A DNA stretch of 64,000 nt, from the NCBI GenBank assembly GCA_039961775.1, contig JABRVZ010000003.1, positions 83,272 through 147,271 of the forward strand, read 5' to 3'. The notes under the pieces were generated by a model that was not told the origin of the DNA, searched no databases, and saw nothing but the letters and a program-made list of their open reading frames with translations. The stretch is from Chloroflexota bacterium. Lineage in GTDB: Bacteria; Chloroflexota; Anaerolineae; Anaerolineales; Villigracilaceae. Shown here in pieces: positions 34,746 to 52,517 of the stretch. The translations under genes and the position numbers were made by a program. Each line of letters starts with the position of its first letter. The first letter of the stretch is position 1.

Positions 34746-36422
34746 TCACTTGATCAAGGCGCGGACTTCTTCGAGAAATTCGTCGTTCAGAAAATCACCC
34801 TTGAGCATCAGGGACTGGATTTGCCCCTGCAGGCGGCTTTTCTCGTCCACAGTCAGTTCCTTGGCGGTGGCGACGATAACGGGGATGTTGGCTGTCTCCG
34901 GCTGACTGCGCAGTATATCCATGACGGTGAAGCCGTCCATTTCGGGCATCATCAAGTCGAGAATGAGAAGATCGGGGCGTTCGCGGTTGACCAGTTCGAT
35001 GGTTTCGCGCCCGTTGACGGCTTCGAAGATTTCAAAATCACCCTGCGACTGCAAAATTCGGCGGATGAGGCGGCGCGCCTCGGCGGTGTCATCTGCCACC
35101 ACCACGCGCGGGAAGCGGTTCGGCGTCACATTGTTGAGGGCGGAGAGCAGCCCCTCTTGCGGGGTCTCCGCTTCTACCTGTTTATGGCGCAGGTCAATAT
35201 CGCGTGTCCAACCTTCGCCGAACAGATATTGCTCGGCGGGCATGGTGTGACCGGTGCAATTCACCACTACTACATCATCCGGCTTGATTATGCCGGCGCG
35301 CACCAGTTTGAAAAGCCCGGCAAAGGCAGTCGCAGAGGCGGGTTCAGCGGAGATGCCCTCCATCTTTGCCAGCACGTGCATCGCGCGAAAGGATTCTTCA
35401 TCCGAAACGCTCTCGAAGACCCCGCCAGTTTCATTGACCTGTTTGCGCAGCATGACGTAGGTGCGCCCAGGGTCGCCGGTTGCCAGCGTTTCGATGCGCG
35501 TTTTGGGCGAGCGCACCGGCTCGGCTTTTTCGAGCCCTTTGCGCCAACTCTCCACCATCGGCGCACAGCCATCCACCTGAATTGGGGCGATGGCAGGGAT
35601 GCGGTCAATCAGCCCCAGCGCCTTCAACTCACGGAAGCCCTTGTACACGCCGAGCGGTCCCAGCCCTCCGCTGATGGATTGCACATACCAGTCGGGCGTG
35701 CGCCATTTCGGACGGTCTTCTGTGGACTCTGGCGGAGCGCCGTTTTGCAGGGTCAACTGTTCGGCAATTTCGAACGCCAGCGTTTTCATTGCCTCCACCG
35801 CTGTGACCGTGCGTGCGCCCATGTCCTGATACAAACCACGCTGGCGGGCAAACTCTGCCGCCATGATTTTCGCCTCATCGTAGGAGCCGGTGATTTTGAC
35901 CACCTGACTGCCATACAGGGCGATCTCGCGCATCTTGACCCCCGGAACGAGGCTGGTGACGAACGCCCAAAGTTTGATCCCCGCCCGAGCCGCATACGCC
36001 GACAGCGAGATAGCGACATTGCCTGTGGAGGCGGCAACCATTTCAGTGATGCCCGCTTCCTTGAGCGCGGCAATCGTCAGCGCCGCCTGCCGGTCCTTGA
36101 AGGAGGAGGTGGGTCCCTGGCGCTCGTCCTTGATGTAGAGATTGTTCAGCCCCAGCATCATTCCCAGATTGACGGCTTTGATGAGCGGCGTGCCGCCCTC
36201 GCCAAGCCGCAGGCTGGGATTGGGGTTGTGAATGGGCAGGAGTTCCTTGTAACGCCACAAATCGAACTCACGGTTTTTCAGTTGTGACGGAAAGGTTTTT
36301 GCCACCTCCGCCATGTCGTATTCGGCTTCGCGCCACTGACTGGAGCAATTGGGGCATTGCATGGAACTGGGCGTGAAGGGAGCGGCATGCCCGCAATCGA
36401 GACAACGAATGACAAATGACAT
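34746..36422 (-). CDS. Threonine-synthase-like PLP enzyme (N-terminal Zn ribbon) fused to a C-terminal receiver domain
   Basis: CLDC...CPNC, LGEGGTPL, SFKDR (PLP Lys), ASTGN, EPASA. C-terminal VVADD...LILDLMMPEMDG...TAK...KG. Confidence 0.88.
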   Translation of the reverse strand: MSFVIRCLDCGHAAPFTPSSMQCPNCSSQWREAEYDMAEVAKTFPSQLKNREFDLWRYKELLPIHNPNPSLRLGEGGTPLIKAVNLGMMLGLNNLYIKDERQGPTSSFKDRQAALTIAALKEAGITEMVAASTGNVAISLSAYAARAGIKLWAFVTSLVPGVKMREIALYGSQVVKITGSYDEAKIMAAEFARQRGLYQDMGARTVTAVEAMKTLAFEIAEQLTLQNGAPPESTEDRPKWRTPDWYVQSISGGLGPLGVYKGFRELKALGLIDRIPAIAPIQVDGCAPMVESWRKGLEKAEPVRSPKTRIETLATGDPGRTYVMLRKQVNETGGVFESVSDEESFRAMHVLAKMEGISAEPASATAFAGLFKLVRAGIIKPDDVVVVNCTGHTMPAEQYLFGEGWTRDIDLRHKQVEAETPQEGLLSALNNVTPNRFPRVVVADDTAEARRLIRRILQSQGDFEIFEAVNGRETIELVNRERPDLLILDLMMPEMDGFTVMDILRSQPETANIPVIVATAKELTVDEKSRLQGQIQSLMLKGDFLNDEFLEEVRALIK

Positions 36423-36497: not shown

Positions 36498-39400
36498 TTA
36501 ACCGCCAATTCGTTTGAGTGCGTTTTCAATGCTGGCAATCAAATCGTTTTCGGTGAGCGATCCCTTGGCAATGAGCCTTTTGCCGTACTCGGCAAGTTGT
36601 TTGTGCTGTTCGTTGGTGAGCCCGCCGCCGCTGACCACCAGTACCGGTATCTCGCGGAGCGCCGGTTCTTCCATCATTTTTTCGAGAATCATGAAGCCAT
36701 TCATCTCCGGCATGAAGATGTCAAGAATGACGGCGTCTGGCGGATTGGTGTTGAGGATTTCCCAGCCGCGGCGTCCGCCTTCGGCAAGAACTGGTTGATA
36801 TTTGCCGTGTTCGGTCAGGATTTTTTCGATGAGGCGTAAGTCGTTGGGGTCGTCATCAACGACCAGCACGCGGCGGATTTTGTCGTTTTTGTCGAGGCGT
36901 TCCAGCGCATGGACAAGGTCTTCTTCGAGAATGGGTTTGACCAGGTAGTCTGCCGCGCCGAGGGTGAAGCCCTTGTCGGTTTGTTCGACGATGGAACAGA
37001 TGATGATGGGCACGTCTCGCGTGGCAGGATCAGATTTGAGGTCGGTCAGAACCGACCAGCCATCCACGTTGGGCATCATGATGTCGAGGGTCACGGCAAA
37101 GGGGTTGATTTCCTTCACTTGTTCCTTTGCCCTGGCAGGTTCGGTCAGAGCGACGACGTGGTATCCCTGCGGCGTGAGGTAGCGTTCGTAGAGACTGATG
37201 ACCTGCGGGTCGTCGTCAATGGCAAGCACAATTTTTTTGCCCGCCGGAATTTCCCCGGCTGGCTGGCGGAAGAGCGGCATGGTGAACCAGAAGGTGGAGC
37301 CTTTGCCCTCCTCACTTTCGACGCCGATGCGCCCCCCATGGAGTTGAACGAGGTTGGCGCAAATGGAGAGACCCAGTCCCGAGCCGCCCGTCTTGCGGGT
37401 GGCGGAGCCATCCACCTGCGAGAACGCCTTGAATAGTTTTTCCTGACCTTCCGACGATATGCCGGGACCGGTGTCGATCACTTTGATGAGCGCCTCGAAT
37501 TTTCCGTTTGGCGCTTTTTGCACGGAGGTCTCGACGGTGATGAAGCCCTCGTCGGTGAATTTGGCGGCGTTGGAAATCAGGTTGAGCAAAATCTGACGCA
37601 CACGCATCGTGTCGCCGCGGACAGTGGGCATTTCCGGCGGAACCTTTTCGATGAGTTGGATGGGCTTTTCCTTGACAAGTCCTTTCGCCGTGGAGAAGAC
37701 GCTGTGAATCATCTCGGCGAGGTGAACTTCCTCGAAGTTGAGTTCCATCTTGCCGGCTTCGATGCGTGCCAGGTCGAGGATGTCGTTGATGAGTCCGAGC
37801 AGGTGCTGACCCGAATTGTAGATGGCGGTGAGGTCCTGCTGCTGCATGTCGGTGATGGGACCATCTATGCCCTTCAGGATGACGCGCGAGAAGCCGATGA
37901 TGGAGTTCAGCGGGGTGCGCAGTTCGTGGCTCATGTTGGCGAGGAACTGACTCTTGAGTTTGTCCACTTCCTGGAGGTTCTTGATGAGTTCCTGCGATTC
38001 AAGGTACAGGGTGGCGTTGTTGATGGCAACGGCAACCTGGTCTGCCAGAGATTGAAGGATGGAAAGCGCATCGGTGGTGAAGGCGTGCGGCTGGGTAGAT
38101 TGAATGTCAATCACGCCGAGCGCCTTGCCGCTGACCTTGAGCGGAATGGCGACCTCTGATTGCGTGTCGAGCAGGAGCGGGTTGGGCTGGTACAGGCGGT
38201 CGGTGGCGGTGTCGTTGACAATGACGGTGTCACCTTTTTCCGCCGCTTTGCCTACGATGGTTTGCGAGCCGACGGGGACCCTGTATCGTTGGGCTTTCAT
38301 TTTTTCGCCGGCGCCGCCTGTCGCTTCGCGCAGGATGACATGGTAGCCGTCTTCGTCCATCTGATAGATGGCGGCGAAGTAGAAGCCTAGGCGGTCGCTG
38401 ACCAGATTGACGGTCTGTGCGAAGATCGTGTTGAGGTCGAGCGTGGAGGTGACGAGCCGCCCGATTTCGGCGGAAGCGGCAAGGTAGATGTTGCGCCGCT
38501 CCAGGGCTTCTCGGGCTTCCAGGCGTTCCAGCGCGGCGGATGTTTGAGCGGCGATTGCCTCGAGGATTTCTTCGTGCTTTTCTGTGAGGCGTATGGCAGG
38601 GTTATAGGTCTGAACCGCCATGACGCCTCGTACCGCGCCGCGGCTTTTCATCGGCACCCCAAGCCAGTCCACGCTGGGAGCGCCGTCGGAGACAATTTCG
38701 CCGCTGGCTTCGAGGTCGGCAAAGATTTCCGGAGTGACGCGCAGGCGTTTACCGGAACGGATGACATAAGAGGTGAGCCCGCGCCCCAGTTTGCGAGGCG
38801 CCCAGTCGTCGTCGTATTCATCCGCGTGATAAGGGAAGGTAATCTGTTGAATCTCCGGGTCGTAGAGCGCCACGAAGAAGTTTTTGGCTGGCAGAAGTGG
38901 TTGAACGGATTCGTGTACGGTGCGGAGTAATTCTTCTGCTGATTGAGCCGTCAGAGCGCTCTCGGTGATGTGCGTGATGGCGTCCTGGGTGAGTTCGTTG
39001 ATCTTACGGTCGGTGATGTCGTGCGCCACCCAAAAGACCTCGGTTTCGCTCAACTTGGAGACGTTGGCGTCGAACCAGAAGCGGCTGCCTTGAATTTCCA
39101 ACGGATATTCGATGCGCACAATTTCATCGCTATTCAACGCATCGAGGATGGCTTTCATAACCGGTTCGCAAAGGTCCGGCGGCAGGACATCGCGGATGTT
39201 TTTTCCCACCATTTCGTCGGGGGGGCGAACCAGCAGGGAGGGGTTGGTGGGTGCGATGCGGACGTAGGTGCCATCCTTGTCGTACACGATAATGACGTCA
39301 TTCATGGCGGCGAACAACGCCCGCAGTTCTGCCTCGGAGCGCTTGGTCTCCTGGAATAGACGGGCGTTTTCGAGCGCCAGCGTCAGTTGGTCGGTCACCT

Positions 39401-39716
39401 GACGGGCGAGCAGTTGGTCTTCCTCCGTCCAGACACGCTGATTGGTTTCATCAACAACCTGCAGGGTCGCCCAGGTATCGGTGCTCAGTTTGAAATCCAG
39501 CGCCAGGGCGGTTTCCGTGAGGGGTGCCGCTTTGGCGCGGCGAACAATGCCGGGGTGTTTTGCTGCCGGCAGTTCCTTGCCCGATACCGCTGCAGGCGGC
39601 TGGGACGCGCCGGCAGGAGCAACCGCCTGAGGTTCGACGCTCGGTTCTTCGTGCTTGATGTCTTCGAATAGTTTGTCAAGCCGCCTGTCGAGCGGTTTCT
39701 TCTTTGGCATATTCAA
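36498..39716 (-). CDS. Hybrid histidine kinase: basic peptide / half-GAF / PAS / GAF / GAF / HisKA / HATPase / REC / REC
   Basis: ANMSHELRTPLN, NLISNAAKFT, DTGPGI, GGSGLGL. Two receivers (TLDIMMP; ILDIFMP). Start may be at 39710. Confidence 0.93.
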   Translation of the reverse strand: MNMPKKKPLDRRLDKLFEDIKHEEPSVEPQAVAPAGASQPPAAVSGKELPAAKHPGIVRRAKAAPLTETALALDFKLSTDTWATLQVVDETNQRVWTEEDQLLARQVTDQLTLALENARLFQETKRSEAELRALFAAMNDVIIVYDKDGTYVRIAPTNPSLLVRPPDEMVGKNIRDVLPPDLCEPVMKAILDALNSDEIVRIEYPLEIQGSRFWFDANVSKLSETEVFWVAHDITDRKINELTQDAITHITESALTAQSAEELLRTVHESVQPLLPAKNFFVALYDPEIQQITFPYHADEYDDDWAPRKLGRGLTSYVIRSGKRLRVTPEIFADLEASGEIVSDGAPSVDWLGVPMKSRGAVRGVMAVQTYNPAIRLTEKHEEILEAIAAQTSAALERLEAREALERRNIYLAASAEIGRLVTSTLDLNTIFAQTVNLVSDRLGFYFAAIYQMDEDGYHVILREATGGAGEKMKAQRYRVPVGSQTIVGKAAEKGDTVIVNDTATDRLYQPNPLLLDTQSEVAIPLKVSGKALGVIDIQSTQPHAFTTDALSILQSLADQVAVAINNATLYLESQELIKNLQEVDKLKSQFLANMSHELRTPLNSIIGFSRVILKGIDGPITDMQQQDLTAIYNSGQHLLGLINDILDLARIEAGKMELNFEEVHLAEMIHSVFSTAKGLVKEKPIQLIEKVPPEMPTVRGDTMRVRQILLNLISNAAKFTDEGFITVETSVQKAPNGKFEALIKVIDTGPGISSEGQEKLFKAFSQVDGSATRKTGGSGLGLSICANLVQLHGGRIGVESEEGKGSTFWFTMPLFRQPAGEIPAGKKIVLAIDDDPQVISLYERYLTPQGYHVVALTEPARAKEQVKEINPFAVTLDIMMPNVDGWSVLTDLKSDPATRDVPIIICSIVEQTDKGFTLGAADYLVKPILEEDLVHALERLDKNDKIRRVLVVDDDPNDLRLIEKILTEHGKYQPVLAEGGRRGWEILNTNPPDAVILDIFMPEMNGFMILEKMMEEPALREIPVLVVSGGGLTNEQHKQLAEYGKRLIAKGSLTENDLIASIENALKRIGG

Positions 39717-40461
39717 TCAACTCCTGAGCGAGGACACGATATTGCTGCGAGCCGCGGCTGGTGGGTTTGTAGTGAATGATGGGCACGCCGGCGATCGGGC
39801 TTTCCCTGAGTTTGGTGTCAATTTCGATGACGGTGGTAAAAACGCCCTGCCCAAAGGTGGCTTGCAGCTGCTCGAAGATATTGCGGTGTGTGCGGTTGCG
39901 GCGGTCGAGGAGGGTGACCAGAATACGGTAGGCAAGCGCAGGATTGACTTCCTGACGGATGCGGCGGATGGTCCCCATCATGTTGCGCAGCGCGTAGGCG
40001 GAGAAGTATTCTGCCTGGGTGGGGATGATGAGCAGGTTTGCAGCGGCGAGCGCGTTGAGGGTGATCGCTCCGAGGGCGGGCGGGCAGTCGAACAGGATGT
40101 AGTCGTAGGGAAGCGGTTCAGCCGCCAGTGCGTCGCGGAGTGTGGTCAGGTAATGATTTCGCATGGGCAGGAATTGCTCCGCATTTTCGATGCGAAAACT
40201 GGACGGCACCAGGGAAAGGTTACGAATTTCGGTGGCGCGGACGGCGGTTTTAAGGGGCGCGCCTTCAATCAGCACGTTTGCCGAGGTGATGCTTGTCTCG
40301 TCGGTTTCCAAACCAAGGGCGAGCGAAAGGTTCGCCTGCGGGTCGAGGTCCACCAGCAGGACGCGGTAATTCAGTTCGGCAAGCGCCGCGCCCAGCGAAA
40401 GCGTGGAGGTGGTTTTGGCGACGCCTCCCTTTTCGTTCGACATTGCGATTGCGTATGCCAT
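39676..40461 (-). CDS. ParA/Soj-family ATPase (orphan, no adjacent parB)
   Basis: KGGVAKTT deviant Walker A, DLDPQAN, DCPP, LIIPTQAEY. Confidence 0.92.
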   Translation of the reverse strand: MAYAIAMSNEKGGVAKTTSTLSLGAALAELNYRVLLVDLDPQANLSLALGLETDETSITSANVLIEGAPLKTAVRATEIRNLSLVPSSFRIENAEQFLPMRNHYLTTLRDALAAEPLPYDYILFDCPPALGAITLNALAAANLLIIPTQAEYFSAYALRNMMGTIRRIRQEVNPALAYRILVTLLDRRNRTHRNIFEQLQATFGQGVFTTVIEIDTKLRESPIAGVPIIHYKPTSRGSQQYRVLAQELIEYAKEETARQAA

Positions 40462-40462
40462 C

Positions 40463-42976
40463 TTACTTGTCCTTTCCGTCCGAAGCCTTGGGCAGGATTT
40501 CCACACGGGTGGCGCCAAGCGCCTGACGCAGTTCCTGCAGGGCGGTTTCGATCATGGCTTGCGGGTCGTTATGGTTGCGTATCTTGCCGGTGATTTCCGA
40601 GACCAGCCGTTCGCGTTCGGCGCGGCGGGTTGTTTCTTCGAACAGGCGGGCGTTTTCTGCGGAGAGCGCCACGCGTTCCGCCACCGCCTGAATGAGGTCT
40701 TTTTCGTCCTCACCCCATTGGGATGCGGATGCAGATTGGACGACCAGCCTGCCGATGACTTCGCCGCGCAGTTCGATCGGGACGACAATCGAGGTTGTTT
40801 CAGCCTTCTCAGCCTTTTTCTTGTCTGGAAGCGGCATGTCCAACTTGATGGGCTCGGTGAGGGGCACTGCCCCCATGGTATTGTAGCGGTAGCCGAGCAG
40901 TTTTTGGCTGTGCGGCAAACGTTTCCATGCTTCGCGAGTGGACTGGCGCATGAGTGTTTGCAGTTCTTCAAGCGCGCGGTTGGAAGCATCGAACAGACGC
41001 GCATTTTCGATGGCGAGGCTTACCTGTTCGGCGAGCAGACTGAGCGTTTGCACGTCTTCTTCGGTGAAGGCGCCGACTTCCGTGCTTTGCACGTCGAGCG
41101 CGCCGATGACTTTGCCGCCGCTGAAGAGGGGCAGCGCCATTTCGGAGTGGGTGTCGGGGAGGTCGGGGTTGTTGAAGTAGACGGCATCCACCCCGACGTC
41201 GAGGGCGATGCGCGGTTTTCCGCTTCCCGTCACGCTGCCGACGATGCCTTGTTCGCCTACTTTCAGGCGGTGTCGCCTTGCCAGCATTCTCTGACCGCCT
41301 TCGCTGTTAGCCGCGGCAAGTACGGCGTATTCGTTGTTTTCATCGAGCAGGAAGATGCCGACATGGTAAAAGCCGTACTTTTCGCTGATGACCGACGTCA
41401 CGTGCGGGAGGAGTTCCTTGGGGTCGCGGATGGAAGCGATGGATTGGGCGACCTGCGCCATTGCCTCGAATTGTGCCGCGCGGCGGTGAAGTTGGGCGTT
41501 TGCCGCTTCCAGCTCACGTCCGCGTTGTTCGACTTCCCGGGTGCGTTCGGCGACGCGCATTTCGAGCGAGTCGATGGATGTCTTGAGTTCCGCCGCCATG
41601 GCGTTGAGGGTGGAGGCAAGGGTGCCGATTTCGTTTTGCTCGGTGATGGCTGCGCGCGCTTCCAGGTTACCTTTTGCCATTTCTTCGGCGGTACGGGTGA
41701 GCGAAAGCAGAGGGGCTATCAGGCTGTTGCTGAAATTGCGGGTGGCGAGCAGGGTGAGCCCGAAGATGCCCAGAACGACGAAGAGACTGATGCCCAGCGC
41801 ATTGCGGCTTTCGCGTTCGAGTTGTTGGCGGGCTTCCAGCGCTTTGGCGAGCATTTCATTGACCGGTACGATGATTGCCAGGCTGAAGCCCGCGCGTTGT
41901 ACCGGGCGGTAAACGACGAACCTCCTGGTGCCGTTCAGGCTGAGTTCTGTGAAGCCGCTGTTGCCGGCGGTCATTTCGGTGAGTATGGGCGCGAGTTCTC
42001 TGGCGGTGCTTCCCAGGTTGGTGGCAGTGAGTTTGCCTCCCAGCGGTAACATGTTCGGGTTGATGTTCAGATCGGCGTAGCCCGCATTGGGCATGGCAAT
42101 CAGCCGCCCGTCGCGGTCGAGCAGGAATGCGTAGCCGCTCTCTGCCACGCTGATATTACCGACGATTTCCGAGATTTTAGTTAGTTGAATATCCTGCGCA
42201 ACGACGCCAGCCAGTCTGCCTGCCGCATCGTAGACCGGCGCGCTGTTGGTGATGACAATACCGTTGAGCGCGGCGTCCAGATACGGCTCTGACCAGACCG
42301 CCCCTTTGCCAGGATTTGCTTCCGGCGCCGCCGCCGTGTACCAGGGTCTGCCGGTGACGTCGAAATCGGGAGGGACGATGGCGGCAAGGTCTATGTTGGG
42401 GTAATAGAGCGTGTACCCCGAAGAACCGCCAAAGTACACGGCGATGACATCGGGATTGGCTTCAAGGATGGAGGGGGCAATCAAGTCCATGTGGCGGATG
42501 ATGTTCAAATCCGCTTTCATTGAGTCGGAGAGGTCGGCTGCGGCAGGGATAAATACGGAGCCGATTTCTGTGTTGGGGTTATCCCAACTGCCCTTGTCGT
42601 TGCGGGAAAGCGATGTGCCGGCGTCCCAAAATGCGCCGGTTTCGAAAGACTGCCGGTTCAGCAGAAGGTTCTGGTCATATTCTCTCAACGAGAGGATGCC
42701 TGCCTCCAGCGACGCGAAAAAGTTCGATAAAGTTTCTGTCTTTCGGTCGGCTGTAATGGCAAGCAGGGTCTCGGCTTCATTACGTGTGGCGGCGTCGAGA
42801 CGTGAAATCAGGGCGGAGTTGGTCTGCCGCGTGCGGATGAATACGAAGACGCCCATGATGGCAAGCGCCAGAAACACGATGGCAATACTGCCGCGAACCA
42901 GCCTGTTGCGAATGGACGGCTGAGGCGCTGAATAGGATTGCGGAGAACCGCCGGTGGGTTTCACTGCATCTGTCAT
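40463..42976 (-). CDS. TM-dCache-TM-HAMP-GAF receptor with split-GAF tail, no catalytic domain
   Basis: FDVTGRPWY..WSEPY dCache, HAMP EIGTLA, conserved GAF, PIELRGEVIG...ENARL...RERLVSEI tail. ATGA overlap with the upstream gene. Confidence 0.85.
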   Translation of the reverse strand: MTDAVKPTGGSPQSYSAPQPSIRNRLVRGSIAIVFLALAIMGVFVFIRTRQTNSALISRLDAATRNEAETLLAITADRKTETLSNFFASLEAGILSLREYDQNLLLNRQSFETGAFWDAGTSLSRNDKGSWDNPNTEIGSVFIPAAADLSDSMKADLNIIRHMDLIAPSILEANPDVIAVYFGGSSGYTLYYPNIDLAAIVPPDFDVTGRPWYTAAAPEANPGKGAVWSEPYLDAALNGIVITNSAPVYDAAGRLAGVVAQDIQLTKISEIVGNISVAESGYAFLLDRDGRLIAMPNAGYADLNINPNMLPLGGKLTATNLGSTARELAPILTEMTAGNSGFTELSLNGTRRFVVYRPVQRAGFSLAIIVPVNEMLAKALEARQQLERESRNALGISLFVVLGIFGLTLLATRNFSNSLIAPLLSLTRTAEEMAKGNLEARAAITEQNEIGTLASTLNAMAAELKTSIDSLEMRVAERTREVEQRGRELEAANAQLHRRAAQFEAMAQVAQSIASIRDPKELLPHVTSVISEKYGFYHVGIFLLDENNEYAVLAAANSEGGQRMLARRHRLKVGEQGIVGSVTGSGKPRIALDVGVDAVYFNNPDLPDTHSEMALPLFSGGKVIGALDVQSTEVGAFTEEDVQTLSLLAEQVSLAIENARLFDASNRALEELQTLMRQSTREAWKRLPHSQKLLGYRYNTMGAVPLTEPIKLDMPLPDKKKAEKAETTSIVVPIELRGEVIGRLVVQSASASQWGEDEKDLIQAVAERVALSAENARLFEETTRRAERERLVSEITGKIRNHNDPQAMIETALQELRQALGATRVEILPKASDGKDK

Positions 42977-45834
42977 GCGATACTTTCTCCGTCTGAGTCG
43001 CCGAATTGGATGATGACTTCTGAGCCAGGCAGGGCGCGTCCCAGTTCTTCGACGGCGGTCTGCAGCACGTTGCGCATGTTGATGGATGCGCCGATTTTGG
43101 CGGAGACTTCGCCGATCTTTGCCTCTTTGGCGGCGCGGCGCTGTGATTCCAGCAGGAGGCGGGCGTTGTCGAGGGCGAGCGCCAGGCGGTCTGAAACGGC
43201 TTGAGCAAGGTTGATTTCGTCCTGATTCCAGCGGTGGTTGGGCAGAGGGGCTTTGATGTTGAGCACACCGATGGTTTGTCCGCGCAGTTTGACCGGGACG
43301 GCAATGGCTGGCTGGGAGAGGGCGTCTCCGCTGTTCACCACTACCACGCGTCCCTGTTTGAGCGCTTTGCGGATTTCCTCCGACATGACTGGTTTGGTGA
43401 GTCTCTGCCCGCCGGTGGCGGTTTGTTGGTAACCAATCCTTTCTGCCTGGCGGATAAATGCGCTCCATTCCCGACTTTGAATCTGGGCGTACAATGACTC
43501 GGCTTCTTCACGCGCCTGGCGCATTTGCCCAAAGAGACGGGCGTTTTCAATGGCAATGGCAACCTGGTCGGCGAGGATGCTGAGGGTTTGGGCGTCATTT
43601 TCGGTGAAGGCGCCGGGCTTGTCACTTTGTACATCCAGAACGCCGATGGTGTCGCCTCGATAGTTGAGGGGCAGCGCCATTTCGGAGTGGGTGTTGGGGA
43701 GGTCGGGGTTGTTGAAGAAAACGGCATCCGCTCCCACGTCGAGGGCGATGCGGGGTTGTCCGGTCTGGATGACGGTGCCTACCAGTCCTGTGCCGATTTC
43801 CAGGCGGTGCCCGCGGGCGAGCATCTTCTTTCCGCCTTCGCTGTTGGCGGCTTGTAGGATGGCAAAGCGGCGGGTCTCATCCACAAAGAAGATGCCGACA
43901 TGATAGAAGTCGAAGCGTTCGCTGATGAGGCGGGTAACGAGAGGCAGCAACACGTCGAGCCGTTGTTCGCTGGCGATGAGGCGGGAGATTTCGCTAATGG
44001 ATTGAAGGTCGTGCGCGCGCTTTTCACTGACCAGTACGGCGTTTTTCAGGTCCAGCGTTCGTTCGCTTACACGCTGTTCGAGCCCGGCAATCAGGTCGCG
44101 CAGTTGGGATGTCATGTAGTTGAAGGCGACTGCCAGCGCGCCGGTTTCGTCGCCGCTTTCGATGTTTGCCCGGATATTGGTATCGCCTTTGGCGATTTTT
44201 TCTGCCACCTGTTTGAGCTGGGTGATGGGAGCCGCAAGCACCTGGGCAAAGCCAGTTGCCGCCGCCGTTGCTGCCAGTGCAATCAGAATTGCAAACAAGG
44301 TGATGTTGCGCGTTTGAATTTGAATTGGCTGGAGCGCCTCGGTTTGATTTTGGATGGAGACGGCATGCCAGTTGAGATCTGTGATGAGGGTGCTCTTTCC
44401 ATTGAGTTGAACAACATCGGTGACGCGGGCGTGGCTTGCCAGGATGGGAATTTCATCGTGGAAGGTTTCATGGTAGGGTTCGGTGGATTCCAGGAGTTCG
44501 TTGATGTTCAGCGACGCAACGGGTTTTAGTATGGTTTCGTAGGCGCCGTCTTCCTTGAGCCGCAAGGAAATTTCCTGCCCGTTGGGGAGGTAGATGTCGG
44601 TGTGGCCGGTTTGACCGAATAAACCGGATGTCAGGGTGTTGGTGAAGATGGATATATCCAGGGTGGTGCGTAGAACGCCGATAGGCTCTGTATATCCCGG
44701 GGGCTGAATGCGAATTGCCATGATAACGCCAATTGCATTGATGCTTTCGTCGTATTCCGGTTGACCGATGTAGCCGCCTTGCTCGTAGGCAGTGCGCCAC
44801 CATGTTTCGTCTGCCTGATAGTAATCGGATGTGCTGTTCGTGATGGCGATGTTCACTCCCTGGCGGTTGGTGAGGATGATTTCGATGTGCTGGGGAAATT
44901 TTTCCTGGAATTGGCGGAGTTCCTGGCTGAGAGGGGCGTTCAGGATGTCACTCACGAGAGGGTCGGCGTAGTTGCGGGCGGCATTGGCAGAGCGCCATTG
45001 TTGGTCGCGGCGGACGATTTCTTCTTCGCTCAGGGGTTTCTGCGCGCTGGAAGATGAAGCAGTCTGAATGACAAGCGGATTCAACGCCAGCGTTTGAAGG
45101 AGGTCTCTCTCGTGCCCGAGGGTTTGACCGACTTCCAGTGCCTTTGAATTTGCCAGCGTGGAAAGTTGTCCGCTGATGATGCGCACCAACGTGGCGCGCA
45201 GGGTGTTGCTTGTGAGGGCTGCGCCAAGTCCAACCGTACCCAGCACGAGAGCGGCAAAAACGACGATCAATTTGGTGCGCAGGGTGTAATTACGGAATTG
45301 CCGTGCAGTGACATGCCCGAACAACAGAATGACCGTTAGCAATATGCCGGGCAGGAAGAAACGAATGATGGCTGGCGGAGGCAGGCGGAAGGCAGGCGGG
45401 AAGATTTCGACCATCATGGCGGCGATTCCACTGACGGTTCCCCAAATGACCGCCTGGGTGACCTGCCTGGCCGGCAGTGTTTGCCCCGCGATGACAGCGG
45501 TGAGAGCCAGGATGGAGATGCCAATGAGCAGCCCGATGCCTTGGATCAGCGCCACAGCAGCGATGAACGTGATTTGCAAAGCAATCAGGATGAGCCAAAT
45601 GGCAGAGGCGAGACGCCGCCGTCGCAACAGGAAGAGGCTGACAAGCAATGCCAGCGCCAGAAGCCAGATGTCGGCGCTCCAGGCATACAGTTGCCAGTTG
45701 CCCAATTGCAGCCCCAGCGCGAGATAGACGGATGCGGCGAGGATGGAGGCCGGCAAGCCAATCAGGATAATGCGCAGGGCGTTGCGTTCTTCGTTTGTAA
45801 AGTTGGAGTCGAAGCGGAATGGATTACTAATCAT
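42973..45834 (-). CDS. Multi-TM + Cache + HAMP + GAF receptor with split-GAF tail
   Basis: N-terminal hydrophobic helices, SDYYQADETWW Cache-type segment, HAMP DETGALA, conserved GAF and tail. Confidence 0.85.
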   Translation of the reverse strand: MISNPFRFDSNFTNEERNALRIILIGLPASILAASVYLALGLQLGNWQLYAWSADIWLLALALLVSLFLLRRRRLASAIWLILIALQITFIAAVALIQGIGLLIGISILALTAVIAGQTLPARQVTQAVIWGTVSGIAAMMVEIFPPAFRLPPPAIIRFFLPGILLTVILLFGHVTARQFRNYTLRTKLIVVFAALVLGTVGLGAALTSNTLRATLVRIISGQLSTLANSKALEVGQTLGHERDLLQTLALNPLVIQTASSSSAQKPLSEEEIVRRDQQWRSANAARNYADPLVSDILNAPLSQELRQFQEKFPQHIEIILTNRQGVNIAITNSTSDYYQADETWWRTAYEQGGYIGQPEYDESINAIGVIMAIRIQPPGYTEPIGVLRTTLDISIFTNTLTSGLFGQTGHTDIYLPNGQEISLRLKEDGAYETILKPVASLNINELLESTEPYHETFHDEIPILASHARVTDVVQLNGKSTLITDLNWHAVSIQNQTEALQPIQIQTRNITLFAILIALAATAAATGFAQVLAAPITQLKQVAEKIAKGDTNIRANIESGDETGALAVAFNYMTSQLRDLIAGLEQRVSERTLDLKNAVLVSEKRAHDLQSISEISRLIASEQRLDVLLPLVTRLISERFDFYHVGIFFVDETRRFAILQAANSEGGKKMLARGHRLEIGTGLVGTVIQTGQPRIALDVGADAVFFNNPDLPNTHSEMALPLNYRGDTIGVLDVQSDKPGAFTENDAQTLSILADQVAIAIENARLFGQMRQAREEAESLYAQIQSREWSAFIRQAERIGYQQTATGGQRLTKPVMSEEIRKALKQGRVVVVNSGDALSQPAIAVPVKLRGQTIGVLNIKAPLPNHRWNQDEINLAQAVSDRLALALDNARLLLESQRRAAKEAKIGEVSAKIGASINMRNVLQTAVEELGRALPGSEVIIQFGDSDGESIA

Positions 45835-47770
45835 TTTGGCTTCCCATCGTGTCCGCATGGAGTTGTACCAGCACTTCGGAGCCGCCCAGGGCGCGGCTGA
45901 GTTCTTCCACGGCGGTGCGCAGGATGGCGTCAATCTGGGTGGTGGCGGTGATTCTGCTGGAGATGTCGGTGGTGATGCGTTCGAGTTCTGCGCGCCGCTG
46001 GGTGGTTTTGAGCAGCAGCGAAGTTTCGAGCGCCAGTGACAGGCGTTCTGCCACGGCTTCGGCAATGTCCACTTCGTCTTCATCCCATTCGTGTTCGCCG
46101 CGGGTGTGGATGTCGAGCACGCCGATTACCTCGCCGCGCAGGCGAATGGGAACGGCAAGCGTGGCGTTTACGCCGCTTTCCGCCACTGTCTGTTTTTCGG
46201 TCAGCGCTTTGCGGTTATGAGCGTTCATCCACGGACGGGAGAGAGGCGCAACTTCATCGCCGGATGCCTTGAAGCCGATTCTTGCGCTGTCGGCTTGCAG
46301 AATGCGCCAGGCGTCCTGCAGGTAGGCGACGGATGTTCTTTGGGCTTTTTCCAGCAGTTCCTGCATGGATTCGAAGGAGCGGGCATTTTGAATTGCCACG
46401 GCAATCTGGTCGGCAAGGGTGGTCAGCACGCGGACGTCTTCCTGCTGGAAGGCGTTGGGCTGGGTGCTTTGTACATCCAGGACGCCGATGGTTTGTCTGC
46501 CGATGATGAGAGGCAGGGCAATTTCGGAGCGAGTTTCGGGGAGGTCGGGATTGTCGAAGTACACGGCATCCGCTCCCACGTCCAGGGCGATGCGGGGAGC
46601 GCCGAGGGCTGAGACGTAGCCAACGATGCCGGTCTGCCCGACCTTGAGCTTGTGTCCGCGCGCGAGCATTCTCTGTCCGCCGGGGCTGTTGGCGGCGCGC
46701 AGGACGGCGTACTCGTTGTTTTCGTCCAGGAGGAAGATGCCCACATGGTAGTATCCCATCCGCTCGCTGATGGCGGTTGTGATGCGCGGAAGCAGGCTTG
46801 GCAGGCTTTCAAGGGAGGTTGCGGCTTTGACGATTTCTGAAATGATTTCGAGCTGACCAGCGCGTTTTTCGAGCGTTTCAACGGTCTGTTGAATTTCTTC
46901 GTTTTGTACGTTCAGGCTGGCGGCTTGACGCCGAAGTTGCTCCTCGTCTGCCTGCTGAACGGCGAGCAGGTCGTTGAAACTTTCGATGACCTGGTTGAGT
47001 TCACGGATGCCGGTGTGCAGTTCCAGCCGTTTGCCTGCTTCCCGAACGCTGGAGGTGGCTTTCGCCAATTCCAACACGGGATTGGCAATTCGTGTGCCTG
47101 CCAGCCAGCCCAGCGCCGCGGCGCCTGCGGCGGACGCCAGGAACAAAAGCACAAAGGTGCGGAAAAACTCCTGTTGTTGCGCCAGGATGTCCTGTGCCAG
47201 AATATCCACGCCGACGATGCCTTCCAATTGCCCGTCGGAGCGGTAGAACGGAGCATAGGCGGTCAGGTAGGTGCCGAATTCATCGGTGTAGAACTCGGTT
47301 TCGACTGCCGGGGCGCGCAAGGTATCGAAGTTTTCAAGCAGGAACCCGCTTGGGCTTTCATAAACCGAGCCAATTTCAACCGGCTGGTACTCTTCGGGCG
47401 GTGCGCCGGGTTCGTGACCGGCGTCCAGGACGAAGTAGATTTCACCCGCTGTATTTTTGCGCATGGTGTACACGTACAGGATTTCCGGGTCGGTGGCGGC
47501 AATGGCGAAGCCTTTGGCTTGCAGTTCCCGGTAGGCGTCGGTGTCCATGTCGGCAGGGGTTTGCAGTTGCGCATGGAGGTCGCCGTTGATTTGCAGGGCG
47601 GCGTTCGCGGCAATGGCTGTCAGTTTGTGCTGCTTTTCGCGGAGCAGGTTATTGCGCGCTTGCGAGTAGGAAAGCGAAATTGTCAGCGCACTGATGAGCA
47701 CACCGGCAATGGCAAAACCAATGGCAAGACGGAAGCGCAGGCTGGTCAGCCGTTCCATTAAGGCTTTCAT
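45827..47770 (-). CDS. TM-single Cache-like-TM-HAMP-GAF receptor with split-GAF tail
   Basis: YVYTMRK..YFVLD...YTDEFGTYLTAYAP...GVD sensor, conserved GAF and tail. ATGA overlap. Confidence 0.85.
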   Translation of the reverse strand: MKALMERLTSLRFRLAIGFAIAGVLISALTISLSYSQARNNLLREKQHKLTAIAANAALQINGDLHAQLQTPADMDTDAYRELQAKGFAIAATDPEILYVYTMRKNTAGEIYFVLDAGHEPGAPPEEYQPVEIGSVYESPSGFLLENFDTLRAPAVETEFYTDEFGTYLTAYAPFYRSDGQLEGIVGVDILAQDILAQQQEFFRTFVLLFLASAAGAAALGWLAGTRIANPVLELAKATSSVREAGKRLELHTGIRELNQVIESFNDLLAVQQADEEQLRRQAASLNVQNEEIQQTVETLEKRAGQLEIISEIVKAATSLESLPSLLPRITTAISERMGYYHVGIFLLDENNEYAVLRAANSPGGQRMLARGHKLKVGQTGIVGYVSALGAPRIALDVGADAVYFDNPDLPETRSEIALPLIIGRQTIGVLDVQSTQPNAFQQEDVRVLTTLADQIAVAIQNARSFESMQELLEKAQRTSVAYLQDAWRILQADSARIGFKASGDEVAPLSRPWMNAHNRKALTEKQTVAESGVNATLAVPIRLRGEVIGVLDIHTRGEHEWDEDEVDIAEAVAERLSLALETSLLLKTTQRRAELERITTDISSRITATTQIDAILRTAVEELSRALGGSEVLVQLHADTMGSQND

Positions 47771-50700
47771 CCTGCCCTCCTTTCCAGCGCTTCGCTTTGC
47801 AGCTGCACGATGACTTCCGTTTCGGGCAGGGCGCGTTTTAATTCGAGCGCCGCCGCTTTCAACAGTTCCTCCATGTCGCTTTGGGCGCTGATTTTGGCGG
47901 AAATTTCTCCGATGGTGTGCTCCTTGGCGGCGCGTTTCTGGCTTTCGGCAAGCAGACGGGCGTTTTCCATGGCAATGGCGGCGCGTTCGAGGATGGCGTT
48001 GACGATGTCCAGTTCGTCCTGGTCCCATTGACGATTGCCCGGCGCGCGCACATCCACCGAACCGATGACCTCTCCGCGCAATTTGATGGGCATGGACAAC
48101 ACTGCGCCTCCCATCCCCGCCTTGAGTTGTTTCGCCGACTGAAGGATTTCCTGCGCCTCCTTGCTGTTTCGCGCATAGAGCAGGGACGCCTTTGCGCCCG
48201 TATGGCGCACGCCAAGCAATTTCTCTCGTTTGGTGAACTGGCTCCAACCGCTGCGCACGAACTGCCTCGAAAGCGACTGCGATTCTGCCAGCGCCTGTCG
48301 GGTTTCCTCGTTTTGTCTCGCGTTTTGGATGGCGATGCTCACCTGGTCGGCGAGGATGGTGAGGATGGCGATGTCTTCGTCGCCGAAGGCGTTCGGCTGG
48401 GTGCTTTGTACGTCGAGCACACCGATGATCATTTCACCCGCCCGCAGGGGCAGGGCAATTTCGGAGCGGGTTTCGGGGAGGTCGGGGTTGTTGAAGAAAA
48501 CGGCATCCGCCCCCGTGTCCAGAGCGATGCGGGGTTTGCCGGTGCCGGCGGCATAGCCGACCAATCCCTTTGCTCCGACTTTCAGCCTGTGTCCGCGGGC
48601 GAGCATGCGCTGTCCGCCGGGGCTATTGGCGGCGCTCAGCACGGCATATTCTCCGTTGCTGTCGAGCAGGAAGATGCCCACGTGGTAGAAGCCAAACTCG
48701 CGGCTGATTGCAACCGTGATTTGTTTGAGCAGACTCTCGAGCTCGAGGTTGGAACTGATGGTGCGGGCGATGTGCGCGATGGATTGGAACTGCCGGGCGC
48801 GCCGCTCGATGTTGGCGTTGGCTTCGAGCAATTGGGCGGTGCGTTCCTCGACGCTTCTTTCCAGACCTTCGAGCGTGCCGCGCAGACGGGCAGTCATGGC
48901 GTTGAATGCCTGCGCCAGTGTGCCGACTTCGTCTTGCGTGCGGATATCCGCTTGTGCGGCCAGGTTGCCCTCCAGAATTTGGTTGGCGGTTTGGGTGAGA
49001 CTCAAGATGGGCGCGGCAAGCAGTTGACCCAGTCCCAGGCTGACCGCCAACGCTCCTGCCAGCAGGATGATGAGAATGACGACGGCGCTGCGCACGGTGC
49101 CCTGTACCTGGGCGGCGATTTCGTTGCGTGTGGCGGCTACCGGTTGTGTCAATTCATCCACAGGCACGATCAACCCAAGGCTGAAACTGCGGTTTGCCAG
49201 CGGAGCGTAGGCAACAAAGTATTTCACGCCATTGGCGCTGGTGGTGATGAGTCCACTCGCGCCGGCAGTTATCCTGAGGGTAATCTGCCGTAACTCAAAA
49301 GGCAGGTTGCCATCGAAGATGGTTTGCTTGGGCTCTTCATTCATTCCCAACACTTCGGGCTGCAAGCCCAGCAGTTCGTATCCCTGCGGCGGCATGGCAA
49401 TGATGTGACCGTCGCTATCCACCAGGAAGGCGTAGCCGCTGGTCCCCACTTTGATTGCGCCGATTTGTTCGGCAATCTTTGCCAGCTGAAAATCTGCCGT
49501 CATCACGCCGATGAACTCATCTTTGAAATACACCGGTGTGGAGACGGAAACCACCAGCCCTCTGCCGGCCGGGTCCTGGCGGGGGAAGGACCAGCGTGCG
49601 CTTCGATCTCTGTTGAAGAGCGGGGTTGCCACACGGAAGGGCGGCTGTGCCGTGCCGTCATAGTTATGCGGCAGGCTTTCGCCCAGTCGAATGTTGGGGT
49701 AGTGAGTGATAATTCCGCGTTTGTCGGTGAAATAGAGCGCTGTAATTTGCGGGTTGTTTTCCAGCACGAACGGCGCAGAAAAATCCAGATATGCCGTCAC
49801 GTTCAATTCACGGATGACATCCTCTGTCAATTCCACGGTCGAGGGGACAAATACGCTGCTGGGCGAGTAGCGGCTGTTGAAGTATTGTCCGTCGCTGTAG
49901 CGGGTGAGCCGCACGGCGGCATCCCAATAGAACCCATTCCCAAGGGTGTTCTTCTGTTCCTGAAGCAGTTCCAACTGGTGGGCAACACCTTCCACCTGGG
50001 CAACCGCTGTATTGAAGGCGCTGTCTGCCCGGCCGGCTTCGTTGGTGATGGTATTGATGAGTTGTTCTTCCGCCAACTGGTTGGCGAGCCGCTCGATGCT
50101 AACCGAAAAGGTGTTGACAAGCCCGGCGGCGCGATTCAGCGCAAAGATCGAAAGCGCCAGCAGCGAAAGGAAACCAGTGGTAAGAATTCCCGCCACGATT
50201 TTCGTGCGGATATTGCCGCTTAACGCCCGCCGCGCAAAATAGGCGGCAGACCCGGCTGCTGCCAGCATCATGATGACTGCGCCAACAATTGGCGCAAAGA
50301 ACTGCGATTGGATACGAAATGCCGGGTCCCAGATTTCGATGGCGGTTGCAAGCAAAAGAGTGGCGGCTGCCAGAAGGATGACGCGGCTCCGCGAACCCGC
50401 CGGGAAAACCCGCCACACGAATAACGCCGTGAAAACCACCACGCTCGCGCCGGCGACCAGGATGGCTCCCCGAATAACCAGCGTCGCCGCCAGCGGGAAG
50501 GCGACCATGCTGAGCGCGTACGTCAACCATGCGCCCGCCAGGTGACGTCCCCGACGCATCAGCGCCAACGCCAGCAGGTTGCCGAGCACCATCAGGCTCA
50601 AAAACGGAATCATGACGCGGTCTGAAAGGTCCAGCGTTCCGCTTTGCAGACGCACAGTAATGAGATCGAACACCAAAAACGCCGCGCCTGCCAGCGCCAG

Positions 50701-50775
50701 CATGCCCGCCAGCAGTGTGCCGACCTGTTTTTGTTTTTCACTCAACATGCTGTCCGTGTCTCGCATTCCGCTCAT
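47767..50775 (-). CDS. Multi-TM + dCache + HAMP + GAF receptor with split-GAF tail
   Basis: N-terminal helices, dCache (VSVSTPVY..GVMTADF; GYAFLVD..G), HAMP DEVGTLA, conserved GAF and tail. Confidence 0.85.
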   Translation of the reverse strand: MSGMRDTDSMLSEKQKQVGTLLAGMLALAGAAFLVFDLITVRLQSGTLDLSDRVMIPFLSLMVLGNLLALALMRRGRHLAGAWLTYALSMVAFPLAATLVIRGAILVAGASVVVFTALFVWRVFPAGSRSRVILLAAATLLLATAIEIWDPAFRIQSQFFAPIVGAVIMMLAAAGSAAYFARRALSGNIRTKIVAGILTTGFLSLLALSIFALNRAAGLVNTFSVSIERLANQLAEEQLINTITNEAGRADSAFNTAVAQVEGVAHQLELLQEQKNTLGNGFYWDAAVRLTRYSDGQYFNSRYSPSSVFVPSTVELTEDVIRELNVTAYLDFSAPFVLENNPQITALYFTDKRGIITHYPNIRLGESLPHNYDGTAQPPFRVATPLFNRDRSARWSFPRQDPAGRGLVVSVSTPVYFKDEFIGVMTADFQLAKIAEQIGAIKVGTSGYAFLVDSDGHIIAMPPQGYELLGLQPEVLGMNEEPKQTIFDGNLPFELRQITLRITAGASGLITTSANGVKYFVAYAPLANRSFSLGLIVPVDELTQPVAATRNEIAAQVQGTVRSAVVILIILLAGALAVSLGLGQLLAAPILSLTQTANQILEGNLAAQADIRTQDEVGTLAQAFNAMTARLRGTLEGLERSVEERTAQLLEANANIERRARQFQSIAHIARTISSNLELESLLKQITVAISREFGFYHVGIFLLDSNGEYAVLSAANSPGGQRMLARGHRLKVGAKGLVGYAAGTGKPRIALDTGADAVFFNNPDLPETRSEIALPLRAGEMIIGVLDVQSTQPNAFGDEDIAILTILADQVSIAIQNARQNEETRQALAESQSLSRQFVRSGWSQFTKREKLLGVRHTGAKASLLYARNSKEAQEILQSAKQLKAGMGGAVLSMPIKLRGEVIGSVDVRAPGNRQWDQDELDIVNAILERAAIAMENARLLAESQKRAAKEHTIGEISAKISAQSDMEELLKAAALELKRALPETEVIVQLQSEALERRAG

Positions 50776-52517
50776 TGATCAACCTCTTTGTTCTGAAACT
50801 GGATCAGCACCTCTGCGCCGCCCAGCACGCGTCCCAATTCCGCGGCGGTGGTTTGCAGGATGTTTTCCAAATTGAGCGCGCTGCCAATCTTTGCAGACGC
50901 TTCGGAGATGGCTTGTTCCTTGGCGGCGCGGCGGCGGGCATCCTGAAACAGACGCGCGTTTTCCATGGCAAGCGCGGCGCGTTCCGCAACCGCCTCCAGC
51001 AGGCTGATTTCATCCTCCTGCCACGTTTTGGAGGGATCGTTCGCCTCGACGTGCAATACGCCGATGACTTCTCCGCGTAATTTGACCGGTACCGCCACCG
51101 CCGGACGCTTCCCGCCGGGCCCTTCAGCCTGTCTCAACGCCGCCCGGCCTTTTGCCGCCGCCGACGCCACCTCCGGCGCGCGCAATTCCGTCTCCAGGAT
51201 TTCGATGCGCCCGGCGTTGTAACGGAAGCCGGCTTGTTCCGCCAGCGCAATGGTGCGATGCCATTCCGTGCGCGTGAACTCGTTGTACACCTCCTCCATT
51301 TGGGAGAGGGCGGCGCGGGTTTCTGCCAGCAGACGGGTATTTTCGAAGGCAATCGAGACTTGATTGGCGAGGGTGAGCAGTACCTGCAAGTCTTCCTCGC
51401 TGAAAGCGCCCGCCTCAGTGGATTGCACGTCCAGCACGCCGATGACCTCATCGCGCGATTTGAGCGGAAGGGCAGCTTCGGAGCGGGTGTTGGGGAGGTC
51501 GGGGTTGTTGAAGAAAACGGCATCCGCTCCCACGTCCAGGGCGATGCGGGGTTGTCCTGTTTGAGCGGCGTAGCCGACAACGCCGGTTCCCAGTTCCAGC
51601 GCGTGGCCGCGGGCGAGCATGCGCTGTCCGCCTTCGCTGTTTGCGGCTTGCAGTACGGCAAATCTTTTTTCGCTGTCGAGCAGAAAGATGCCGACATGAT
51701 AGAAACCGAACTGTTCGCTGATGAGTCGGGTGACGGCGGGGAAGAGGTCGGTCAGGTCTCGAAATTGAGCGATGGCTTCCGAGAGTTGAGTGATGGTGTG
51801 TAGTTGGGCGGCGCGGCGCTGGGCTTGGCGGTTGGCTTCGGCGAGTTCCGCCGTGCGTTCTGCCACGCGTTGTTCGAGGTTGCCGGTCAGGTCTTCCAGC
51901 TGGCGGTTGATTGTGCGGATTTCTTCGAGCCTGACGGCTTCGGAGCGGTTTCTGAAGTTGTCGAGGAACATCAGTGCGACGCCCAGGGTGGTGAGAATGC
52001 CGGCAATCCCTCCGGCGTTTTCGGGCAGAGGGATGCCGAAAAGCGGAAGCGAAACGAAGGCGCCGATGTTCAGCCCTACCAACAGGAACACCGCCCAGGG
52101 GGAGAGGAAGTTGCTCGCCATGACCAGGCTGAGCGGCACAAAGATGAAAATGTTTGCGGCCACATCAACAGCAGGACCTTGCCGGATGACGTTGATGTAA
52201 CCGCCTGCGGCAAATATCACCGCAAAGAAGAACACGCCCCCCCGGTAGTATTTGGTTTTTGCCAGCAGGTATGCGATTCCCAGCCCAATCAAGGGGGCGC
52301 CAAAGCCGCCGATGCCCTCCGCAAGCCCGTTAGAAAGGCTGCTGGCAATAAAGCCGGTGAAATTCAGGATTTCGATGACCAGAATCAGGGTGATGGCGAG
52401 GCGGGCGTATTGCTGCTCCCGGCTGTCTTGCAGGGAGGGGTGAGGCATGGTGAGCGCCTGCCAAAGGCGACTTAGCCGATTTCCGGTCTGGGGGGCGGGG
52501 TTCAAGGGTTCGTTCAT
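50772..52517 (-). CDS. About 5-TM intramembrane sensor + GAF receptor with split-GAF tail
   Basis: Hydrophobic N-terminal block, LEQRVAERT coiled coil, conserved GAF and tail. Confidence 0.85.
   Translation of the reverse strand: MNEPLNPAPQTGNRLSRLWQALTMPHPSLQDSREQQYARLAITLILVIEILNFTGFIASSLSNGLAEGIGGFGAPLIGLGIAYLLAKTKYYRGGVFFFAVIFAAGGYINVIRQGPAVDVAANIFIFVPLSLVMASNFLSPWAVFLLVGLNIGAFVSLPLFGIPLPENAGGIAGILTTLGVALMFLDNFRNRSEAVRLEEIRTINRQLEDLTGNLEQRVAERTAELAEANRQAQRRAAQLHTITQLSEAIAQFRDLTDLFPAVTRLISEQFGFYHVGIFLLDSEKRFAVLQAANSEGGQRMLARGHALELGTGVVGYAAQTGQPRIALDVGADAVFFNNPDLPNTRSEAALPLKSRDEVIGVLDVQSTEAGAFSEEDLQVLLTLANQVSIAFENTRLLAETRAALSQMEEVYNEFTRTEWHRTIALAEQAGFRYNAGRIEILETELRAPEVASAAAKGRAALRQAEGPGGKRPAVAVPVKLRGEVIGVLHVEANDPSKTWQEDEISLLEAVAERAALAMENARLFQDARRRAAKEQAISEASAKIGSALNLENILQTTAAELGRVLGGAEVLIQFQNKEVDQ

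Follow-up and report, generated by a model that had tools for sequence, protein, structure and literature searches.

Introduction

So far, accounts of many sensors sharing one kinase have come mainly from work on chemotaxis arrays and the stressosome. In the stressosome (RsbR paralogs, RsbS, and the RsbT kinase), sensor paralogs with variable N-termini feed through a conserved C-terminal module into one kinase-controlling hub. Here, we analyzed a 64,000-nucleotide stretch of contig JABRVZ010000003.1 from an Anaerolineales bacterium (hereafter, the window), in which 11 receptor-like proteins (R1–R11), a ParA/MinD-type ATPase, and a soluble hybrid histidine kinase are encoded together. Near its N-terminus, the kinase carries an orphan fragment corresponding to the end of a GAF domain, and each of the 11 proteins terminates in a stub corresponding to the beginning of one.

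The locus resembles chemosensory arrays (MCP-CheW-CheA; ParC/ParP in Vibrio and PpfA/TlpT in Rhodobacter sphaeroides) in that many paralogous dCache/HAMP receptors join variable inputs to a constant cytoplasmic module, one kinase and a ParA-type ATPase are encoded together, and a partner protein has a basic N-terminal peptide. However, the window kinase is a HisKA-type hybrid, and the constant receptor module consists of a GAF domain, a compact GAF domain, and the stub. Pfam found no MCPsignal, CheW, or CheA domain in the six of the 11 receptors that were scanned (R1–R6) or in the kinase, which places the locus outside these arrays; only dCache and MCP-like PDC sensor heads are common to both. 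With the stressosome, the locus shares variable-headed sensor paralogs whose common C-terminal module bears on one kinase-controlling hub, but the stressosome is built on the STAS fold and a serine kinase and has neither truncated domains nor ParA.

At the level of sequence and fold, the receptor tails match the tandem GAF and GAF-PHY junctions of phytochromes, cyanobacteriochromes, and PDE/CyaB (8W26, 6OAP, and 3LFV), in which helix a5 of one domain runs straight into a1-a2-b1 of the next. The known proteins complete both sides of this junction, whereas the receptors stop after b1 and the kinase starts at the penultimate strand. Domains assembled from fragments include the split PH domain proposed for PLC-gamma1 and TRPC3, and donor-strand complementation operates in chaperone-usher pili. 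The likeness to these cases is that two incomplete pieces could form one fold with a terminal strand donated. To our knowledge, no GAF domain is assembled from fragments on two chains; no such example, and no description of a system of stub-ended receptors, ParA, and kinase, was found in the searchable literature.

Results and discussion

The hybrid kinase begins with the C-terminal part of a GAF domain

The kinase gave Pfam matches to HisKA (3e-21) and HATPase_c (3e-29) and contained two REC stretches, as expected for a hybrid histidine kinase (Table 1). The first-pass annotation of the window had proposed that this protein opens, after a disordered linker, with a half-GAF at 39345–39520. The peptide on which the proposal was based, ALALDF...ENARLFQE, was found at residues 68–121 counted from the ATG at 39710, corresponding to nucleotides 39348–39509 of the minus strand, and the proposed interval brackets it. 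The lack of the N-terminal part of the domain was also borne out: the fragment alone matched Pfam GAF only at profile positions 100–133 of 133 (E 0.011), and a match over the whole profile of PF01590, PF13185, or PF13492 was not obtained. The fragment is composed of a hairpin (E69–75/E81–87), the invariant residues W80 and W94, and a helix at 96–121 ending in ALENARLFQE. Judged from its sequence, it is a GAF C-terminal piece, namely the last hairpin and helix, and not a GAF domain.

A hidden Markov model (HMM) built on the ten receptor-tail hairpins scored the fragment at 31.4 bits, and one built on the hairpin of the receptors' full first GAF domain (GAF1) scored it at 20.4 bits. The preferred interpretation of the fragment is a copy, lacking the first half, of the compact second GAF domain of the receptors. 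The statement that the ten tails share W..DE and ENARL with the kinase was true in part: the Trp residue was present in nine of the ten, while W..[DE][DE] was found in seven and an exact ENARL in five.

The kinase head is composed of a basic peptide (MPKKKPI.KRL..LFE), a variable Pro/Ala-rich linker, and the conserved hairpin-helix SLAFQAGQNSWATLQVLDE..R.W..DEQLLVKQVADQLSLALENARLFQETQ. A head of this type was present in 111 of 119 homologs among the matches listed, from a search in which more than 1000 proteins passed the cut-off. The domains following this constant head differ (PAS or full GAF), and the kinases range from 1070 to 1713 amino acids. Conservation among kinase orthologs was 81% for the fragment, 73% for the peptide, and 23% for the linker, whose length and sequence differ across more than 100 homologs. 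In a sequence alignment (A2), W80, W94, and nearly all helix residues at 100–123 were invariant or nearly so, and they are strongly conserved across about 70 loci. The hairpin itself is conserved order-wide (W80, A81, T82, L83, Q84, V85, D87, and E88).

In an AlphaFold2 monomer model of kinase residues 1–250, the predicted local distance difference test score (pLDDT) was 27–42 for the peptide and linker, in line with the disorder ascribed to the linker, and 82–93 for the PAS domain. The hairpin and helix of the fragment scored 43–65, versus more than 90 for the same elements inside the complete domain of the receptors.

A search for an unsplit ancestor with the 73-residue fragment against 1.84 billion representatives did not serve this purpose: giant multi-GAF proteins, scoring high through the sum of their repeats, filled most of the list, and its only yield was a wider family with the N-terminal peptide and the half-GAF. 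This family includes giant kinases of 1800–3200 amino acids (P0267, P0271, P0300, P0329, P0338, P0344, P0356, and P0368; locus L107, 16591–20925) that have an N-terminal RL..LF.DL peptide in common with the kinase head. Their orphan half-GAF is preceded by a PAS-like insert that is conserved (GWTWECD...) and by a long linker of low complexity.

Receptor tails are predicted to contain a complete compact GAF-like domain, followed by a stub

R1–R10 have varied heads followed by a full GAF domain and a conserved tail of about 190 residues. Among the receptors scanned by Pfam (R1–R6), the heads contained dCache and/or HAMP domains or no recognized sensor domain, output domains were absent, and the overall layout was sensor, HAMP, GAF, compact GAF, and stub. 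An H box was found in none of 19 representative stub-ended proteins.

The last 200 residues of R5 were modeled by AlphaFold2 from an alignment comprising the ten paralogs and the tails of 17 homologs, giving a mean pLDDT of 87.9. The model consisted of a helix (2–45), two strands (49–53 and 56–60), a helix (67–75), three strands (79–85, 88–99, and 102–110), and two C-terminal helices (120–164 and 169–184), followed by coil to the chain end. The N-terminal helix derives from the long GAF1 helix, and the first strands from the W..GYRY linker. The second domain thus runs from a W..GFRY strand through a second strand, a short helix, and three strands to helix a5, which ends in ENARLF. The top Protein Data Bank matches in Foldseek were all GAF domains with a probability of 1.0, with TM-scores of only 0.3–0.49 owing to the long helices, and the second domain matched Pfam GAF_3 at positions 47–129 (E 4.8e-9). 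The earlier view that the tails carry a bare half-GAF did not hold, since this model gives a complete domain of helix, five strands, and helix. The model suggests that the receptor hairpin belongs to a complete compact GAF-like domain and that only the kinase copy is headless.

Two other arrangements were discarded on the same grounds. A circularly permuted GAF domain, in which a1-a2-b1 would follow the hairpin and a5 of the receptor tail and fold back on them in cis, was ruled out because AlphaFold2 built the complete domain from the linker ahead of the hairpin and the hairpin itself, with the last segment of the stub unpaired. A daisy chain, suggested by the parity of 11 hairpins and 11 stubs, was dropped because the receptor hairpins belong to complete domains.

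The other part of the earlier proposal, that incomplete GAF starts stand at the C-termini of all 11 upstream proteins, was confirmed, with a stub of about 55 residues on each. The stub profile gave an ungapped alignment with a1-a2-b1, the first 55 residues of GAF1 in the receptors themselves (GAF1 residues 5–59; hhalign probability 87.6%, E 3.5e-6), and the tail profile matched residues 3–57, approximately, of solved phytochrome and cyanobacteriochrome GAF domains (8W26, 6OAP, 8K9O, 6BHN, and 2LB5). By this a1-a2-b1 homology and the end of the chain at that point, the stub is a GAF N-terminal segment; in isolation, it gave no match in Pfam, for which it is too short. With a stub HMM, 260 C-terminal stubs scored a median of 74 bits, versus about 20 bits for ordinary internal GAF N-termini. 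In the R5 model, the stub forms a helix prolonging a5 and a second helix, and its b1-homologous end is left as coil, with no pairing partner in the monomer.

Departures from the common layout were observed in several proteins. The outermost member of the array, R11 (61565–63673, minus strand), is a soluble multi-GAF protein; its stub stands directly after a full GAF domain, and its first GAF-like region appears to begin without the leading helices. The tail is duplicated in some receptors (P0124, 922 amino acids; L074, 4078–6318), in the order compact GAF, stub, compact GAF, stub; in L074, the first stub continues straight into the strands of the next unit and resembles an ordinary GAF domain in normal order.

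Stub-ended receptors, ParA, and the kinase are syntenic in Anaerolineales

A scan of one genome per species yielded 71 loci, all labeled Anaerolineales, Anaerolineae, or Chloroflexota except one labeled Syntrophothermus. Together with the window and the loci fetched earlier, 73 loci with a kinase-type fragment were identified by HMMs. ParA was encoded immediately upstream of the kinase in 72 of the 73, and at least one stub-ended open reading frame (ORF) lay upstream in 70; the three exceptions had truncated flanks. All 70 informative loci combined stub-ended receptors, ParA, and the kinase, which are in strict synteny in Anaerolineales.

The start of the kinase gene overlaps the end of the ParA gene by 35 nucleotides (39676–39710, minus strand), as is also the case in L001 and L003. 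The first 22 or so residues of the kinase are near-invariant, with M1, K3–K5, P6, R10, and F15 invariant in alignment A2, and this peptide is probably the partner peptide of the adjacent ParA-like ATPase.

A metagenome scan was seeded with a related kinase that has the N-terminal peptide and a full first GAF domain, and it returned loci L079–L083, L091, and L101; window-type loci in the same metagenome set were L107, L109, L116, L118, L119, L122, and L129. In L079-type loci, the peptide is carried by a membrane-spanning stub-ended receptor encoded directly after ParA, and the hybrid kinase has no such peptide. The peptide there reads M..D..L..QLEGLF (L079, 4768–6831; L083, 4560–6161; L091, 2006–4234; L101, 4634–6232).

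The kinase fragment as a candidate receptor-coupling site

In the monomer models, neither piece is satisfied within its own chain: the stub ends in coil, and pLDDT is low for the kinase hairpin. We infer physical docking between receptors and kinase, with the fragment as the docking site. That the fragment is a receptor-coupling site in one geometry or another is our leading but tentative reading, which we hold to be somewhat short of an even chance. The output-less receptors would act on the fragment through their homologous tails, that is, the second GAF domain and the stub. The receptor tail (...hairpin-a5-a1-a2-b1) and the kinase head (hairpin-a5-a1...) would represent overlapping homologous copies of one inter-domain junction, and the fragment would be the free N-terminal end of the helical spine of the kinase. 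Association might occur either by strand and helix completion by the stub or by side-by-side pairing of the a5/a1 junction helices, like the dimer interface of tandem GAF proteins. Most economically, the ancestor would be a receptor-like kinase resembling that of L083, from which the membrane head, GAF1, and the first half of the compact GAF domain disappeared; the kinase would have retained the hairpin and the a5 signaling helix and gained a flexible tether of about 45 residues and the ParA-partner peptide.

Strict completion of the fold in trans, the form of docking originally proposed for this kinase, is a special case of coupling through the fragment and accounts for only part of its likelihood; we consider it unlikely. 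The stub corresponds to GAF residues 1–55 and the kinase piece to GAF profile positions 100–133, and the two are natural neighbors because the established GAF topology (sheet order 2-1-6-5-4-3) sets the first strand alongside the last and packs a1/a2 against a5. In such a complex, the stub strand would lie beside the last kinase strand (WATLQVVDE) and the stub helices on the kinase a5, producing a three-stranded, three-helix GAF-like core, an arrangement that is equally doubtful. The unpaired end of the stub and the low confidence of the kinase hairpin agree with it, as do the bit scores that mark the stub as a specialized, constrained module, the strict co-occurrence in Anaerolineales, the lack of an output domain in stub-ended proteins, and the existence of chains bearing both pieces at opposite ends. 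However, the composite would be short of three of the six strands, the stub helices are confident (pLDDT about 90) without a partner, and eleven stubs face one kinase. The split GAF domain might then act as a plug and socket in which whichever sensor tail binds would complete the fold and fix the register of the kinase signaling helix, a proposal to which we assign a low likelihood. Its reach would be the membrane and soluble output-less sensors of Anaerolineales, each ending with the first third of a GAF domain, and one ParA-positioned hybrid kinase starting with the last third; this wider version is likewise improbable.

Several observations weigh against coupling through the fragment. Loci L079–L083, L091, and L101 pair stub arrays and ParA with hybrid kinases whose N-terminal part comprises a membrane region or coiled coil together with a complete GAF domain, and no orphan half was detected within about 20 kb of each of these loci, even at low thresholds. 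Stubs are kept where no orphan half is nearby; therefore, their function is not simply to complete the kinase fragment, which counts most directly against strict completion. Covariation between the kinase half and the stub was no better than in shuffled controls among 258 locus-matched pairs, with a maximum corrected mutual information of 0.23 versus 0.22 on average and 0.33 at most after shuffling, in a test of low power; covariation was thus set aside as support for docking, in the strict form as in any other. The receptors' own hairpins already lie within complete domains. Lastly, the conservation of the fragment helix barely exceeds that of the helix in the last GAF domain ahead of HisKA (entropy 0.63 versus 0.78 bits), and the conservation of the fragment could merely reflect a structural role in the kinase dimer. 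The idea that exceptional conservation of the helix marks an interface with multiple partners was dropped, as it is only marginally above that of another signaling helix of the same kinase.

The same data bear on a reading without receptor contact, in which the hairpin-helix units of two protomers cap the dimeric coiled-coil spine as a remnant of an ancestral membrane kinase that lost its head. The kinases of L081–L083 and L101, which have a complete GAF domain, a compact GAF domain, and a further GAF domain, are untruncated membrane hybrid kinases of this kind, and truncation of such a protein would yield exactly the fragment. The resemblance of the helix to another signaling helix in its conservation and the lack of covariation with stubs also fit. 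This reading, somewhat unlikely in our estimation, meets difficulties in that the hairpin, beyond the helix, is conserved across an order and that the receptors would lack an evident route of output; with its low confidence, the monomer model is neutral as regards a homodimer. Receptors and kinase would have to be coupled otherwise, for instance through co-localization on a ParA scaffold or contacts with other domains of the kinase, for which we see a similarly limited likelihood.

Kinase-less proteins with the N-terminal peptide, linker, and orphan half at the start and a stub at the end were also found (L054, 9989–11644; L071, 1785–6029; L072, 9002–13396; P0366, P0368, and P0349), and they could chain if the pieces pair. 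Such proteins are what would be expected if family members were joined head to tail, or closed into rings, as larger assemblies with no dedicated receptor-kinase link. In the window and about 70 related loci, however, the pieces are on separate proteins, with one half per locus, and this explanation is very unlikely.

If the receptors contact the kinase at this fragment, around a dozen sensors whose inputs are unrelated would share one two-component kinase without CheW or CheA. Plug-and-socket coupling, if true, would be distinct from both CheW/CheA arrays and covalent sensor kinases, and a GAF domain split over two proteins would add a new case of fold completion in signaling and offer protein engineers a small, naturally occurring docking pair. 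The filamentous bacteria of this order are abundant and little studied, and the system is conserved throughout the order.

Coordinates of the features and the downstream gene

The positions of the kinase, its parts, ParA, and the receptor elements are listed in Table 1.

Table 1. Features of the kinase, ParA, and receptor genes, in window coordinates
Feature	Position	Strand	Basis
Hybrid histidine kinase ORF; likely start ATG 39710 (MPKKKPL...)	36498–39716	minus	
Kinase remainder: PAS, GAF, GAF, HisKA, HATPase_c, REC, REC	36498–39347	minus	Pfam
Orphan GAF fragment, kinase residues 67–121	39348–39512	minus	Pfam GAF positions 100–133 only; conservation; pLDDT
Pro/Ala-rich variable linker, kinase residues 23–66 (about 45 residues)	39513–39644	minus	Conservation; pLDDT
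Conserved basic N-terminal peptide of kinase, MPKKKPLDRRLDKLFEDIKHEE	39645–39710	minus	Alignment of homologs
ParA/MinD-type ATPase, 261 amino acids from ATG 40461	39676–40461	minus	Pfam AAA_31, CbiA, ParA, MipZ
R1 stub	40469–40654	minus	Stub HMM, 85 bits
R2 stub	42982–43167	minus	Stub HMM, 91 bits
R3 stub	45833–46021	minus	Stub HMM, 83 bits
R4 stub	47776–47964	minus	Stub HMM, 82 bits
R5 stub: a1-a2 and unpaired terminal segment homologous to GAF b1	50775–50933	minus	Model; hhalign; HMM
R5 long connecting helix and compact second GAF-like domain	50934–51374	minus	AlphaFold2; Foldseek; Pfam GAF_3
R6 stub	52551–52742	minus	Stub HMM, 84 bits
R7 stub	53927–54100	minus	Stub HMM, 79 bits
R8 stub	55804–55983	minus	Stub HMM, 81 bits
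R9 stub	57992–58183	minus	Stub HMM, 79 bits
R10 stub	59613–59804	minus	Stub HMM, 82 bits
R11 stub, after full GAF in soluble multi-GAF protein	61574–61765	minus	Stub HMM, 80 bits

Immediately downstream of the kinase, the window encodes a fusion of a pyridoxal phosphate-dependent enzyme (PALP, threonine-synthase-like) and a receiver domain (34746–36422, minus strand), which is a likely output of the phosphorelay. The same fusion, followed by an EamA transporter, is conserved downstream of the kinase in L001 (15188–16864) and L003 (14131–15807).

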